Positions 32,549-43,769 of a DNA stretch of 64,000 nucleotides are shown here, piece after piece. The notes beneath the pieces were generated by a model. That model did no database searches. It was not told the origin of the DNA and saw nothing but the letters and a program-made list of their open reading frames with translations. How positions within the stretch are numbered: the stretch's first letter is position 1; the number at the start of each line of letters is the position of its first letter. This DNA comes from a virus (Duplodnaviria > Caudoviricetes): positions 1 to 64,000 of IMG/VR virus record IMGVR_UViG_3300038393_000457, one strand, 5' to 3'. The translations under genes and the position numbers were made by a program.

Positions 32549-33145
32549 ATGAAGTCTTTGATGAACAAGATTCCTTGCACTTCTGCAACGAAGATGATGA
32601 TGTGGCATTTCATGGATGCCCCTGAGAAGTTTGCTACGGAAGACCATAAGAAGCTCTTCCATAGAATGGCTATGGCTGATGAATTTTGTCTGATGGACCT
32701 GCTGTCCTTGATGGATTATATAAATCGGCACCCTGTTACTGGAAATTATGACTATTCCAATCTTGGTGGGGCAGGACCTGATTTCATCATTGGTCAGTTG
32801 GAAGTCATGTTCCAGACAACTGCAATGACCGAGAGTATGCATTATTATGATGTTCTCGTTGGTTTTGCGGAGAATCGTGCTACGAGTTATCAGGAATTGG
32901 TTGATTACCTTGCAACTAATCCTATTCTCCCTTCTCCGACTGAGATCAGGGCTCAGTCGGATAAGGTTACCCGTGACACCAAGAAGATTATCTTGGATAA
33001 GATTGCCAAGCTCGACCCTTCTCTCGTGAACCAGTTCGGTTTGGATGATATTGCAGACAAGTACCTGGACGATGTTGGTGGTCAGGAAGGAAGTGATCTT
33101 TCTGATTGGGGCAGCGCAGAAGGAATGAAGAGAAAGCTTCACTAA
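32549..33145 (+). CDS. hypothetical protein
   Basis: 198-aa ORF with highly-expressed-type codons. Confidence 0.6.
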   Translation: MKSLMNKIPCTSATKMMMWHFMDAPEKFATEDHKKLFHRMAMADEFCLMDLLSLMDYINRHPVTGNYDYSNLGGAGPDFIIGQLEVMFQTTAMTESMHYYDVLVGFAENRATSYQELVDYLATNPILPSPTEIRAQSDKVTRDTKKIILDKIAKLDPSLVNQFGLDDIADKYLDDVGGQEGSDLSDWGSAEGMKRKLH

Positions 33146-35395: not shown

Positions 35396-35453
35396 ATTAC
35401 TACCCCTACCAAGGGATCGAATAAAAGATCATAACTTTGGTAGTTTCATTTAT

Positions 35454-35503
35454 GCTCGCTCGCCGTAAGGTGTGCAACTGATCGAAAGATCAAGCGAGCA
35501 CCA
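35454..35503 (+). ncRNA. 50-nt CCA-ended tRNA-minihelix mimic
   Basis: gctcgct/agcgagc + ACCA with two GNRA-capped hairpins. Confidence 0.6.
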
Positions 35504-36194: not shown

Positions 36195-36526
36195 TATAAA
36201 TCTCCTTCTAAATGCTAATTGTATTTAGTAAAATTTCGACTCAAGATGTGGGTTCGAGTCCTGCTAGGGACGCCATTTAAGAGGTTGTTATGACAGATTG
36301 GGGAACAGGTTGCACAGAGACGAGTGATGATTGTACTCTTCACAACCTTCATTGTGGTTATCCAAATTATCCTAAAGGTAAAAGGGATAAAGCAAAGATC
36401 AAAACTCCAACGGAGTTGATCGTGGAAAGAATGAGAAGTCTTGGTCTAGCTATCAATGACGCTCAGAGAATCGCCAATGAAGTTGTTCATGTACTTGGAC
36501 AAAATGGTTATTTGAAATAGAAATTT

Positions 36527-36606
36527 GGGGGACGGGACTGCTTGGGGTGGTCGTCGCACTTGCAATGCGAATATTCAGCAGGGTTCAAATCCCTGGTTCT
36601 CCACCA
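36527..36606 (+). tRNA. trnA: tRNA-Ala(TGC)
   Basis: G3-U70 pair; tcgca-cttgcaa-tgcga; ACCA. Confidence 0.9.
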
Positions 36607-36608
36607 AA

Positions 36609-36727
36609 ATTAACATACACCAGCGCCGCGTGGTTATACTAATCACCTAAGACGTGAAAGCATTCGAAAGAATGGGCCTGTTGGAGCAAAATACGGTGCG
36701 GATAAACTTGCTTTCATGTATGTTAAT
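36609..36727 (+). ncRNA. compact pseudoknotted RNA candidate
   Basis: 11-bp closing stem; crossing gcgccg/cggtgc and tgaaagca/tgctttca helices. Confidence 0.55.
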
Positions 36728-37018
36728 ATTCTAGAAATAGTCAGCTAACAACTTCCCCGTAGAAGGGGTGGCCAGTCACAAATCGACGGCCTGACAAATG
36801 GTTAGCACAATTCAGAGCTTAGACCGGGATCGATTCACTCAGAAGCTATCAGTGACCGGCTATGTGGTTGTTGTCTCGCAATGCTTCTGGCACGCAACCA
36901 GAAATTATGCAGGTACCATTCGCGTGAAGATTTGGCTAAGCTAATGTGATAATCTGAGGCCTGCACCACATTAGATGTTGACAGTAAGTAGAGTTTTTGT
37001 TAGTATGTGTTTGTTCGT

Positions 37019-37331
37019 TCTTAGAGAAATGCCGTGACAGAGTGATCACGTTTTACTTTTCGGACGGAATGTGCCCTGGTAAACAACTACGGGGCGGGAG
37101 TAGGAGTGAGAAGGATAAAGTCCTTGAAGACTGGAAAGTATGTTGTAGCGTCCAGTTGGAGAGAGCAACACGACAGAACATAGTCTAGAAAAGCGTGTTG
37201 TATCCGTTAATAACGGATGAGTCGTTGATAATGTACTAAGCGGCCACTTGGTAAGTTTGAGACTCTGACTGATTAATCCCCTCATGTTTGAAACTCGGAG
37301 GCCTTGACAGCCACCCGGCATTTCTCTAAGA
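37019..37331 (+). ncRNA. 313-nt multi-hairpin RNA candidate
   Basis: perfect 16-bp terminal helix; TTGACA-N17-TAGTAT promoter upstream. Confidence 0.7.
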
Positions 37332-37454
37332 TCGAATGATTGTAGACGCTAAGGTTTAATTTGACCTCAGAAGTGAAAACCAATAAAGATTGTTGGTGAT
37401 AGTATCTTCGATTACGAGACGATTTGAAAGGGTCGGTTCTACATTTGTTTTTAT

Positions 37455-37529
37455 ACGGGAGTAGCTCAGTGAAAGAGCGTCTGGCATCAGGTCAGAAGGT
37501 CGGTGGTTCAAGTCCATCCTTCCGTGCCA
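37455..37529 (+). tRNA. tRNA with apparent TCA anticodon (A33, G37); suppressor-like or degenerate
   Basis: tctgg-catcagg-tcaga; acgggag/cttccgt; GCCA. Confidence 0.6.
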
Positions 37530-37534
37530 ATTAT

Positions 37535-37589
37535 GGAGGGCTTCCTAAGGGTATGGGAGCTAAGTGCGCTAGAGGTGCAACCTCCACCA
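37535..37589 (+). ncRNA. 55-nt CCA-ended two-hairpin mini RNA
   Basis: ggagg/cctcc + ACCA. Confidence 0.45.
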
Positions 37590-37656: not shown

Positions 37657-37729
37657 ACACCAGTGTTCCGACAGGTAAGGGAGACGTCTTTTAAACGTCT
37701 ATATGTGGGTTCAAATCCCACCTGGTGTA
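37657..37729 (+). tRNA. trnK: tRNA-Lys(TTT) within a 21-bp inverted repeat, no CCA
   Basis: gacgt-cttttaa-acgtc. Confidence 0.8.
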
Positions 37730-38442
37730 CTAAGAAGAAATTTTTTCTTTACAGTATTATAATTAGCACCTCTTGGACTTTTTCCTTGTGCAATAAGATA
37801 TTGACGAATAGAAGGATATCCTTCTATTTCAATTTTCTTGGTGTTCTTTCTACGTCTTATATTTCTACCTCTCCATGTATCTGTTTGTGAATGACAATTT
37901 GGGCATAGAAATTCCACATTTTCTCTTGTGTTATTATGATGATTACCATCCTTATGTTCAAATTCCAATGTAATTGGTTTACCTAACCAAGTGTCATTAT
38001 GACATTTATTGCACCTATTTTCTTGATCTCTTAATACCTGTTCTTTAAGTTCTTTGACATATGATAATGGATTTCTTTCTCGTCTTTTTGCATGTTCTAT
38101 TTTCCATTTAAGACCATCCATTAATCTTTTATGTTCCATTGAACAAAATTTCTTTTGTTTTCTGCTAAGTATATTATAACAACCATCAATTCCACAATAA
38201 CAATTTTTATTATCTAAATCCTTTAGACGTTGGAAATTGTTGACTCTGGTGGAACAACTATTGCAGCAATATTTTGGATTTCTTGTGTTTTTGTTGCATT
38301 CTTGGTTCATACATTGATGTGGTTGTCTCATTATTTGACTTTCATTTTTTGTTATGTTAGTATTTACCATACTAAATAATTGATCAAAAGTCAATTGGAT
38401 ATTATAAATAGGATTTCCGGCACGATGTAATGGTGCCGCCAA
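37711..38442 (-). CDS. HNH homing endonuclease with Zn motifs (true start probably internal)
   Basis: RCNKC..W.GKPITLEFEHKDGNHHNNTRENVEFLCPNCHSQT. Confidence 0.9.
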   Translation of the reverse strand: MAAPLHRAGNPIYNIQLTFDQLFSMVNTNITKNESQIMRQPHQCMNQECNKNTRNPKYCCNSCSTRVNNFQRLKDLDNKNCYCGIDGCYNILSRKQKKFCSMEHKRLMDGLKWKIEHAKRRERNPLSYVKELKEQVLRDQENRCNKCHNDTWLGKPITLEFEHKDGNHHNNTRENVEFLCPNCHSQTDTWRGRNIRRRKNTKKIEIEGYPSIRQYLIAQGKSPRGANYNTVKKKFLLSTPGGI

Positions 38443-38760
38443 GAACGTCGGTCAGATATGGCCGATTGGATCGCTCAGGTGGTCCTAGGTTCTTGGACAA
38501 GTTTTGCGGTAGCTTACGGATGTTTGTCTAGGTCGAAAGACTAAATTTCGGAGTGTGAAGGAAGCACGGTGGTCTTTTAGACGACCAGAATCGGATCGTT
38601 ACCGGTCGAAATTTTCCGCAACTAAATAGACAACCGTAGTGTGAAGAACACGTAAATCGGATGAATTTTTGGCATTGAGTGTTTGGGAAAGTATGATATC
38701 TGACTGCACTGGTTGATGCATTCCAGACGGTCTAACTCAACTATCACCGTTGGTTATCAT
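38411..38760 (+). ncRNA. ornate structured RNA candidate downstream of late promoter TATAAATA (38403)
   Basis: more than 10 helices, multibranch junctions, one pseudoknot; no ORF. Confidence 0.7.
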
Positions 38761-38843
38761 GGTACATGGTGGAAATGGTATACACGCACGTTTTGAAGAC
38801 GGGCGCTCGAAAGAGATTGCAGGTTCGAATCCTGTTGTACACT
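38760..38843 (+). pseudogene. degenerate class II tRNA (Leu-like D arm, TGA in loop)
   Basis: D and T arms intact, acceptor mispaired, no CCA. Confidence 0.6.
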
Positions 38844-38870
38844 GTGACGATCCATTCACTTGATTTTTGT

Positions 38871-40160: not shown

Positions 40161-40361
40161 CTAATCTCATTCAATAATTTTGGAGTTGTGATGAATAAGT
40201 TGTTGAATGCCTTTGAACGTTGGATGTGCGAATATCCACCCCTGTTGGATGACACCAAGGATATGAATGAACGTCCTGGTGGTTTTTGGACCTATCGTGC
40301 GAAGAAAGCATATCCACCTGGTCGCGGTCCAGAAAAATATTGGGATGATTTAGAAAAGAAT

Positions 40362-40434
40362 GCCTAGTGGTCTCGGGTACCAATCTGGTCTCATAAGCTG
40401 GATGTGATTGGTTCAAATCCAATACGAGGCACCA
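40362..40434 (+). tRNA. tRNA-Met/Ile2(CAT) with shortened D arm
   Basis: loop ctcataa; ACCA. Confidence 0.75.
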
Positions 40435-40531
40435 AAATTGCGGAAAGACTACCATGGATGTCGTCACAGGGACCGTGACCTTGCGCGTTGAGGATAGACT
40501 GTTGACCCGCAATAGTATTTGTGTATAATTT

Positions 40532-40613: not shown

Positions 40614-40887
40614 ATTAATGTTGACCTTGTGACTATGCCGGTGGAAGTTGATAGCCCCATAGATATGGAAGAATCAGCGACTCAAGGAAGCCGTCAACAT
40701 TGACAAGATTTTGTATTATGGTATAAATAGATCATGTTTAGAGTTTTAGTTAGTTGGGCAGTTATTGCAGCTTTTATATTGGGATTGATGGATTGGGCGT
40801 ATGATCTATCTGAACGTTACAATCAACCAAACCCAAATAGAGCAGTAATTGTGGTTCCAAAGGAGCCAATAAAATATTAATTGTAAT

Positions 40888-41536: not shown

Positions 41537-42288
41537 GTGATGGTATTTCTTGCTTGGATTGTTGTTGCTTTTGTCATTATCGGAGGTGCCCTTGCTATGA
41601 TGAAGGGTTTCAATAAGGGTCCAGACTATTCGTCTGAAACCGACGGTAAGGTTCTGGATACTTCTGACAATACCTGGAAGACACCAGAAGAACTGATGTC
41701 GTCTGCTAATTCTTTTACGCAAATTGTAAATTCGGTTCAATAAGTTTGAATGCCGCTTTGGCTGTGATGGTTCAAGCACCGCGCTGAAGACGTGGATATC
41801 TCGGTTCGATCCCGAGGGGCGGCTCCATTTTCTATGAGGTTAAAATGGTAATTGTTGGTCTAGTTTTGATTCTTGGCATTCTTGGTTGGATCGTATATGA
41901 AAAGATTGTCAAGAATGAAAGGATTGCAGCACAAGTAATTCGTGAACGTGAATTGGATGAAGAAGTTGTCCGAGATAGGGTTTATGATCCGGTACTGAAT
42001 GATATTGTTTTGGATCGTATCAATAAGCTTCGTGTCTACAATGGACGTACTCCATTGACAATGGAACAAGCAAAGTCTGCGATCGATATGCGTAAACTTC
42101 ATTCCGTAGACACCATTATTTCAAGTGCTCCTGGTGGTAAGCGTCAATGTGTTGACACCAATGAGAAATTTTTGGAATATTTGAATCCTGATTATGCTGT
42201 TGAAATTGAAAAGCCTGGTACTCCTTTGAATAAAGGAATCTTTGCTGCTATTGACAAAGATATGCAAAAGAATAAGAAGACTAAGTAA
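41537..42288 (+). CDS. two membrane-anchored hypothetical proteins (41537-41743, 41845-42288)
   Basis: N-terminal TM helices, RBS. Confidence 0.55.
41752..41827 (+). tRNA. trnF: tRNA-Phe(GAA)
   Basis: ccgcg-ctgaaga-cgtgg; TCCA. Confidence 0.9.
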
Positions 42289-42382: not shown

Positions 42383-42632
42383 ATCCCTCCCATCTAACGT
42401 GTCTCAATGGATGGTGTATGATTGCTGGTTCAATTTTCTGTCAGATGCGGCACGCGACTTTGGCAGTAAACGGTAGTCTCTCCAGCTATAAAAAGGATGA
42501 AACCGAATATTTCTTTGTGTGATCAGTAGTGAATTTTGCGACACGTAAGTCTAGCTATTGGTTCCACCTTGTATGATCTGTGTCGAGGAGTGGCGGATGC
42601 TTAAACTTGACAAGTGTGAATATGAGTTTTAT

Positions 42633-42716
42633 ATCGGTGCTAGGGTAGTGGGATACCTAACTGTCTCCAAAACAGTCGCCTAGAGCTAGGGGGTTCGATT
42701 CCTCACACCGGTGCCA
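42633..42716 (+). tRNA. trnW: tRNA-Trp(CCA) with enlarged variable region
   Basis: actgt-ctccaaa-acagt; GCCA. Confidence 0.85.
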
Positions 42717-42960
42717 TAGCGTGCTAGACGTTATCTAGCCTGGTCCTATGACAGTTCCATAGGAAGGGATTTGTTGATTGTTCCTGGAACAATACAATCA
42801 TCGCGAAATTCTCTGCCCCTATAGTTTACTTTAGGGCCCCCCGAGTCCTTCGTGACACGGGACGATGCCTGCAAGTGTGACCTTGCAGGGACCAATGGAG
42901 TAATCTGTTGGTATAGGGTAGCCAGCGTTCCCCATGTCACAGAAACGCTGGGTTTATTTT

Positions 42961-43036
42961 GGTTCCGAAGAGCAAAGGATAGAGCCTCTTCCCTGTCTAG
43001 GAAGAGTAGGGGGTTTGAGTCCCCCCGGAATCGCCA
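42961..43036 (+). tRNA. trnD: tRNA-Asp(GTC), weak D stem
   Basis: cttcc-ctgtcta-ggaag; GCCA. Confidence 0.8.
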
Positions 43037-43213
43037 TTTTCTCCACGCGGCAGGAAGCGGGGTCCACTGAAACAGCCCGTAAGGATAAAAGGAATTAGGA
43101 GTCCAGTAGAATAAGATTTCATTTGAAAGTTGCCGTCTGAGACGGATTTGGTATAACTGCGGTGGATATTATTCGTGAAGCTTGTCCCTTGGTCCTTGGA
43201 GAAAGTTATTGAC

Positions 43214-43286
43214 GTGGGCGTGGTGTAGTGGTAGCACAGGAGATTGTGATTCTCCAGGGATGGGTTCGAACCCCAAGCTCACCCCA
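43214..43286 (+). tRNA. trnH: tRNA-His(GTG)
   Basis: ggaga-ttgtgat-tctcc; CCCA. Confidence 0.85.
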
Positions 43287-43294
43287 GATTTTTA

Positions 43295-43745
43295 TGATGT
43301 TTGGAAAGACTGTATAATGAGTAGGAATAATTTGAAGGCGACCTAAGGATAGGGTAGTCCCGCGTGTAGTCACAGGTCCAATTAAAGTCTCCCATCTTAT
43401 TGAAAATTATACATCTTCTCCGACTGCCTGCACATTACGGTGTGTGATTGGAGCATCTGGTATTCCAATGTCTAGAAATAGGCGGCAGAGCAATTGAACA
43501 AATAAGTAGAATAGGAAATTCCCAACGGAGGGTGAGTGTCAACCACTGGAATGACATTTGCAAGTCTAGTATACATGAGTGGCCAGCCGTAAGGTAAAGC
43601 GCACGTGAAGGTCGACAACAGCCCGTATGTACTCTTTTGAAGTGCTATGCTACCCAAGAGTGGTAGGAAAGTAATAAGAAGGATGATGACGGTCCCCTGG
43701 ATAACCGAAAGCCGAAGAACGTCAGACTTCCAACGTGTATATTAG
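43295..43745 (+). ncRNA. about 450-nt ornate ncRNA candidate between tRNA-His and tRNA-Cys
   Basis: multiple nested domains, no credible ORF. Confidence 0.65.
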
Positions 43746-43769
43746 AGACTGCAAGGGAATATTTTTTTT

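Follow-up and report, generated by a model that had tools for sequence, protein, structure and literature searches.

The tRNA array of this phage raises the question of what occupies the roughly 350 nucleotides of non-coding DNA at positions 38411–38758 (+ strand), between a divergent HNH homing endonuclease gene and a gene for tRNA-Ser(UGA). The original prediction read this stretch as one large, ornate RNA with a pseudoknot, transcribed from a late promoter and belonging either to a new class or, as a divergent member, to a known class such as GOLLD or ROOL. We favor a different reading, to which we assign a probability of a little over one half (roughly 55%): the stretch would be a composite pre-tRNA region, consisting of a leader, a divergent tRNA-Lys-like cloverleaf, and a decayed copy of that cloverleaf, rather than one large RNA.

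The window analyzed here is the initial 64 kb of a viral contig from IMG/VR, which has a length of 83.8 kb and an estimated completeness of 47%. The family-B DNA polymerase encoded on it is 41–45% identical to gp43 of T4-like cyanophages, and further genes on the contig encode a DnaB-like helicase, RNR, NAMPT, and ThyX. Judged by this level of polymerase identity together with the gene content, the phage is a distant member of the T4 type. With default settings, ARAGORN identified 31 tRNAs in the window, 25 of which are co-oriented between 30.9 and 47.1 kb. Endonuclease genes of the HNH, GIY-YIG (related to T4 segB), and PD-(D/E)XK types are scattered through this array. The HNH gene that borders the target stretch (37711–38331, − strand; phrog_14736, E = 6.5e-22) has a GC content of 31%, compared with 46% for the target stretch and 40% for the genome and window. 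The class II tRNA-Ser(UGA) on the other side (38759–38844, +) was called by ARAGORN and scores 28.5 bits with the Rfam tRNA model, slightly below the 29-bit gathering score. Its 5′ processing site would set the 3′ end of the target stretch, and tRNA-Gln and tRNA-Ile follow it in the array. The predicted location, in a co-oriented tRNA array and behind a promoter-like site, was therefore correct.

A canonical tRNA-Lys(UUU), identified by both ARAGORN and Rfam, lies at 37657–37730 (+), beyond the HNH gene and approximately 800 nt upstream of the cloverleaf described below. The 3′ end of the HNH ORF (−) overlaps the 3′ end of this tRNA (+) at 37711–37730, so that Lys(UUU)-type cloverleaves stand on both sides of the endonuclease gene. 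The array also contains a tRNA of normal length with the anticodon UCA (37455–37529, +; 50.9 bits with the Rfam tRNA model), which is of the opal-suppressor type. Met, Tyr, and Asp tRNAs are absent from the default ARAGORN set; a call for tRNA-Met(CAT) at 40362–40434 (+) appears at the 90% threshold, at which shuffled controls yielded 0–3 calls, and is uncertain. Non-coding DNA between the tRNAs of the array is far above the usual phage level, and further ORF-poor blocks of 250–850 nt are found between array tRNAs (36195–37454, 40162–40531, and 42383–43769).

The target stretch had been proposed to lack an open reading frame, and this held: its longest ORF is no more than 41 amino acids in length (genetic code 11). 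When TGA, TAG, or TAA was reassigned in a search for hidden ORFs, only frames that run through tRNA genes were opened. All of the complementary segments listed in the original prediction were found in the sequence (+ strand), with helix pairs at 38418–23/38433–38, 38439–46/38489–96, 38504–09/38616–21, 38516–19 plus 38524–30/38627–33 plus 38634–37, 38544–50/38607–13, and 38675–80/38735–40; the 8-mer loop motif that had been described as repeated occurs at 38553 and 38639. The expectation of real, strand-specific RNA structure was likewise confirmed, the whole stretch folding at −111.6 kcal/mol with z = −2.62 on the + strand and z = −1.41 on the − strand. When parts of the stretch were folded separately and compared with shuffles, the signal proved uneven, residing in the 5′ domain alone, with none in the 3′ third. 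Two Rfam 15 scans were run, a check that had been proposed together with the original prediction: one covered 18 kb with a cutoff of E ≤ 1, the other 481 nt with relaxed filters and a cutoff of E ≤ 10. Even the latter matched no family within the 350 nt. Across both scans, tRNAs were the only matches on the + strand, and a single − strand match over tRNA-Ser (E = 0.16) is at the level of chance.

A promoter-like site at 38380–38410 (+) precedes the stretch and can be read from the sequence in two ways. One reading rests on the octamer TATAAATA at 38403–38410; the other combines a −35-like hexamer at 38380–38385, a 17-nt spacer, and a −10-like TATAAA. The late promoter of the original prediction thus stands in part: the octamer is present, but its designation as late is unproven because the same octamer completes a sigma-70-like site, and the TTGATC-17-TATAAA reading fits as well. 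Six copies of TATAAATA were seen in the window versus 3.6 expected, which is not an enrichment, and a −35-like hexamer lies 17 nt upstream of two of the six (38403 and 40722). Three of the copies precede co-oriented ORFs by 55–100 nt, and for this reason TATAAATA may be a genuine T4-type late promoter in this phage. In a separate region of the array (40700–40880, +), a second TATAAATA with a consensus −35 hexamer 17 nt upstream is followed by a 48-amino acid hydrophobic ORF and then by tRNA-Gly.

The 5′ part of the stretch begins with hairpin H1 (38418–38438, +), which has a 6-bp stem and a 9-nt loop and lies approximately at the expected transcript start (z = −2.93, 0 of 200 shuffles). It abuts a compact three-way junction (38439–38496, +) that is followed by A-CAA. 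An 8-bp closing stem of the junction holds two hairpins, one of 8 bp and one of 7 bp and each with a 4-nt loop, and the connecting strands are 0, 1, and 3 nt long. Folded alone, the 58-nt junction has a z score of −5.69; its minimum free energy (MFE) structure coincides with the centroid and accounts for 77% of the ensemble. The entire 5′ domain (38418–38496; 93 nt folded) gave z = −4.44 on the + strand (0 of 200 shuffles) and z = −1.86 on the − strand. The junction contains four G-U pairs that render the fold specific to the + strand and explain why the − strand folds more poorly. A 93-nt sliding scan of the first 51 kb of the window placed the 5′ domain among the lowest MFEs, with the caveat that about 3% of the windows score z < −4 against mononucleotide shuffles, so that a strong z score is not rare in this genome. 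The most extreme 93-nt windows in that scan (z of −6 to −8.5, mononucleotide shuffles) lie near 32881, 33121, 33321, 6681, and 121 (+), several of them in or beside ORFs.

Two mini-modules on the + strand of the window, at 35453–35503 (51 nt) and 37535–37589 (55 nt), consist of an acceptor-like stem that closes two hairpins and is followed by A-CCA. Each folds into one dominant structure (z = −3.47 and −1.81, respectively). The junction at 38439–38496 has the same architecture as these modules but ends in A-CAA. Downstream of the junction, a linker (38504–38542, +) carries the 5′ strands of two long-range helices, designated A (38504–09) and B (38516–30), and a 4-bp hairpin with a GAAA loop (38531–42); folded alone, it has z = +0.37.

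The next element had been described as a 7-bp stem enclosing three hairpins and had been listed among the helices of the proposed RNA. A partial match of the core covariance model on tRNA-Ile(UAU) prompted its re-reading, and both ARAGORN and the arm lengths identify it instead as a tRNA-shaped cloverleaf. At a threshold of 95% (-ps), ARAGORN called a tRNA-Lys(ttt) at 38543–38617 (+). The 64-kb window gave no other additional call, and its five shuffled copies gave none at all at this threshold. The cloverleaf is composed of an acceptor of 7–8 bp, a 2-nt link, a D arm of 4 bp with a 7-nt loop, 1 nt, an anticodon arm of 5 bp, a 4-nt variable region, and a T arm of 5 bp with a 7-nt loop, all of which are standard tRNA arm and loop lengths. 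One G-G mismatch is present in the anticodon arm, and the 7-nt loop CUUUUAG provides U33, the anticodon UUU, and A37. The D and anticodon arms are similar to those of the phage’s own tRNA-Ile(UAU). The cloverleaf lies below the thresholds of the detectors: it was called neither by ARAGORN with default settings nor by the Rfam tRNA model at E ≤ 10. Its folding energy alone corresponds to z = −0.87 relative to shuffles, a value that is ordinary for a tRNA.

Position by position, as read from the ARAGORN drawing and the sequence, the cloverleaf retains G18-G19, U33, a purine at 37 (A37), G53, U55-C56, and C61. It lacks U8, A14, T54, and A58, in place of which it has G8, G14, A54, and U58. The identity elements of tRNA-Lys are divided, the anticodon UUU being present and the discriminator at position 73 being U, not A73; CCA is also absent. 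The loss of U8, A14, T54, A58, and the lysine-identity A73 makes it improbable that the cloverleaf works as a lysine tRNA; it is most likely either a recent pseudogene or a tRNA mimic that has been exapted.

Local self-alignment revealed that the cloverleaf is followed immediately by a decayed partial duplicate of the same unit (38618–38674, +). The segments that begin at 38531 and at 38604 have four collinear blocks in common: an 8-mer at the 3′ end of the T stem and acceptor, a 7-mer in the spacer, the D arm (15 nt), and an 8-mer that opens the T arm. Their alignment score of 30 compares with 16.3 ± 3.1 in shuffles, of which 2 of 500 scored as high (about 0.004), and the shared 8- and 9-mers, which are words of the D and T arms, are absent elsewhere in the 84-kb record. 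The period of the repeat, 66–86 nt, equals a tRNA gene plus a short spacer. The duplicate keeps the spacer motif, the D-arm hairpin (38639–38651), and the start of the T arm (38655–62), and the 3′ strands of helices A and B also lie in it; it has no anticodon arm, and its acceptor pairing is lost. The repeated loop motif of the original prediction is therefore present as a repeat, but it is not a feature of a new RNA: it corresponds to the D arm shared by the cloverleaf and its decayed duplicate, and it recurs because the cloverleaf unit was duplicated in tandem. The GAAA hairpin of the linker opens with the same 8-mer that ends the cloverleaf and, by virtue of that 8-mer, may be the remnant of a still earlier copy. 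What is left, up to the 5′ end of tRNA-Ser (38675–38758, +), is a spacer for which folding indicates an irregular long hairpin (38675–38740). The 3′ 141 nt of the stretch have z = −0.15, and 83 of 200 shuffles fold equally well.

Homologues of the stretch were sought in several ways. None was found by blastn and megablast against 50,697 phage records, by blastn and nhmmer against 1.95 Mb of loci of polB and ThyX relatives, by covariance models (R1 and R2) applied to 1.06 Mb of such loci, or by R1 alone in 38 whole viral records from these relatives. Pattern searches likewise returned no homologue: two motif patterns in viral contigs gave 50 matches to one of the patterns, all of which are unrelated; one motif pattern in metagenome contigs gave five matches, attributable to chance; and a D-arm/anticodon pattern was negative in viral and genome contigs. 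A sequence search of the phage’s own genome and an unfiltered search of 27 kb of the window with R1 did not find a paralogue. Synteny was approached through two proteins. A 71-amino acid membrane protein is widespread but occurs in unrelated contexts, and a 147-amino acid neighbor has no homologue but itself. A search of 5.8 billion proteins with this 147-amino acid ORF (41845–42288, +) recovered only the ORF itself, which was seen on 12 contigs belonging to the phage. The other readable contigs of the phage carry identical DNA.

These observations suggest a model for a composite pre-tRNA region. Transcription would start from the promoter-like site at approximately 38380–38410 or reach the stretch by read-through from upstream. 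The 5′ end of the transcript would consist of a very stable hairpin and the three-way junction (38418–38496); the transcript would then cross the tRNA-Lys(UUU)-shaped gene (38543–38617) and a 140-nt spacer that is mostly a wrecked tandem copy, and run on into tRNA-Ser, tRNA-Gln, and tRNA-Ile. Cleavage by RNase P at tRNA-type 5′ ends is part of general pre-tRNA maturation, and we infer that the host enzyme would process the 5′ ends of both the cloverleaf and tRNA-Ser and so release a leader of approximately 125 nt. The structure at the 5′ end of the leader might shield the leader from 5′-end-dependent decay or allow it to persist as a small stable RNA. The region itself would have originated when a tRNA unit was duplicated in tandem and then decayed, within an array rich in homing endonucleases. 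Three observations count against this reading. All four stems of the cloverleaf are intact, unlike the outcome of random decay, and could reflect a function. In addition, the retention of 350 nt of non-coding DNA by a streamlined phage hints at a function beyond debris. Finally, helix B, considered below, might unite the elements of the stretch.

A reading that we consider unlikely takes the opposite direction and regards the stretch as debris throughout, the scar of homing-endonuclease traffic and tRNA duplication, in which even the junction is a by-product such as a former tRNA-like unit or the remnant of an inverted repeat. Signs of such traffic are present in the adjacent HNH gene, which is AT-rich, foreign-looking, and overlaps a tRNA, and in the decayed duplicate itself; the neighboring ORF is an ORFan, the lineage lacks close relatives, and folding scores below −4 with simple shuffles are reached by some 3% of the windows of the genome. 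The junction, however, is exceptionally well defined for a by-product, with its z score of −5.69, a single structure that makes up 77% of the ensemble, and G-U pairs that are strand-specific. The intact stems of the cloverleaf also argue against debris, as does a GC content that stands above that of both the genome and the endonuclease gene (46% versus 40% and 31%).

Whether the stretch forms one large RNA depends in part on the pseudoknot. Helix A comprises 6 bp, and helix B pairs the cloverleaf’s leader with its trailer. The strongest duplex of the two 40-nt flanks, which corresponds to helix B, has an energy of −20.0 kcal/mol, compared with −14.2 ± 3.4 kcal/mol in shuffles, 5.5% of which are as good; the flanks of 1 of 25 real neighboring tRNAs match its strength. 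In the crossing order, nearly all of the sequence lies between the 5′ strand of helix B and the 3′ strand of helix A. The helices of the proposed pseudoknot thus exist, but they do not rise above chance (p of about 0.05 for helix B and a length of only 6 bp for helix A). Helix B, of borderline significance, encloses the cloverleaf and could join the separate parts of the stretch in a single fold.

In that event, a tRNA-like domain would be embedded in a common fold with the junction and helices A and B, giving a single stable non-coding RNA of approximately 220–340 nt that represents a new class, an interpretation we regard as distinctly improbable. Its role could be that of a scaffold, like tRNA-adjacent phage RNAs, or of a decoy or sponge for host enzymes that recognize tRNA-Lys(UUU), such as PrrC-type anticodon nucleases. 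The z score of −2.62 for the whole stretch, with its strand asymmetry, speaks for a large RNA, as do the bracketing of the cloverleaf by helix B and the preservation of the cloverleaf’s stems while positions for normal tRNA function have changed. Nested tRNAs have been reported in GOLLD RNAs. Phage tRNAs with altered anticodon loops have been proposed to counter host tRNA nucleases, and the target of PrrC is tRNA-Lys(UUU) (PMC10264068). Against a large RNA stand the 3′ third, which lacks a structure signal, the two helices, which are within chance, and the duplication, which accounts for the repeated motif; the searches made returned neither an Rfam match nor a homologue nor a genomic paralogue. 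The single ornate RNA of the original prediction is therefore unsupported, its core being a tRNA-shaped cloverleaf, its 3′ third folding at z = −0.15, and its crossing helices falling within chance. As a long shot, H1 and the junction could combine with helices A and B and with the cloverleaf in one stable tRNA-embedding RNA of a new class, a decoy directed at host tRNA-Lys nucleases; alternatively, the junction and the CCA-ended mini-modules at 35453–35503 and 37535–37589 could form a phage-specific family resembling tRNA minihelices.

The least probable reading, in which the cloverleaf works, despite its oddities, as a tRNA-Lys(UUU) that adds to or stands in for the host tRNA and withstands a host nuclease, with the remainder of the stretch as leader and spacer, can draw on the canonical arm lengths, U33, the UUU anticodon, A37, G18-G19, and U55-C56 and on the proposal that loop changes let phage tRNAs evade tRNA-targeting defenses (PMC10264068), but it is undermined by the missing U8, A14, T54, and A58, by U73, by the G-G mismatch in the anticodon stem, by the unmatched Rfam tRNA model, and by the fully canonical tRNA-Lys(UUU) located 800 nt upstream.

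Comparison with known systems places the stretch outside all curated RNA families; nearest to it are the tRNA genes and pseudogenes of phages and the stable RNAs, as yet unexplained, that the T4 tRNA cluster encodes. With phage tRNAs and pseudogenes in T4-like arrays it has in common a cloverleaf of canonical size, a Lys(UUU) loop, and a position in a co-oriented array that contains SegB-like and HNH genes. It differs from them in that the cloverleaf lacks four near-universal tertiary positions and A73, fails both the Rfam model and default ARAGORN, and has a long structured leader on one side and a decayed duplicate on the other. The T4 RNAs rnaC and rnaD (stable RNAs species 1 and 2) are likewise non-coding, have no assigned function, and are encoded in a T4-type tRNA cluster beside a GIY-YIG gene (segB in T4), and rnaC has a tRNA-like T arm. 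They are 119 and 139 nt in length and follow tRNA-Arg, whereas the stretch described here precedes tRNA-Ser. A relationship to rnaC or rnaD was rejected on the basis of alignment scores of 30 and 28, compared with shuffle means of 27 and 24.

GOLLD and ROOL resemble the stretch in being phage-borne, adjacent to tRNA genes, and non-coding; both are much longer. Membership in these or similar classes, the second possibility raised by the original prediction, found no support, since neither Rfam model matched at E ≤ 10, and the 3′ third of the stretch lacks a structure signal. The bacterial Y RNA YrlA, whose tRNA-like domain is borne by a long stem, likewise has a tRNA-shaped module with an acceptor end that runs into flanking sequence. 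A Y RNA was rejected because Rfam yielded no match, genes for Rsr/TROVE and RtcB are absent from the 84-kb record, and the cloverleaf has a full 7-nt anticodon loop. For tmRNA, default ARAGORN and the Rfam tmRNA models were negative, and a permuted call that appeared at the 80% threshold only is not credible. A group I intron was rejected in view of the lack of an Rfam match, a crossing order that is not P3-[P4-P6]-P7-P3′-P8-P7′, and the intact flanking tRNAs. RNase P RNA likewise had no Rfam match, and the consensus of CR-I and CR-V (around P4) is not seen in its sequence.

On its own, the stretch is a modest finding, and the surrounding RNA-rich district is of greater interest. The most notable features of the stretch are the three-way junction and a cloverleaf whose stems are preserved while its tertiary positions have been swapped. 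If it is indeed a composite pre-tRNA region, it would constitute a record of the turnover of a phage tRNA array through tandem duplication, decay, and endonuclease traffic, and would add to such arrays a very stable leader module with a possible role in the stability or processing of the transcript. Having kept all of its stems and lost the U8-A14 and T54-A58 positions, the cloverleaf is naturally a candidate tRNA mimic instead of a decoder, and such a candidate bears on the idea that phage tRNA genes answer host defenses that cleave tRNAs.
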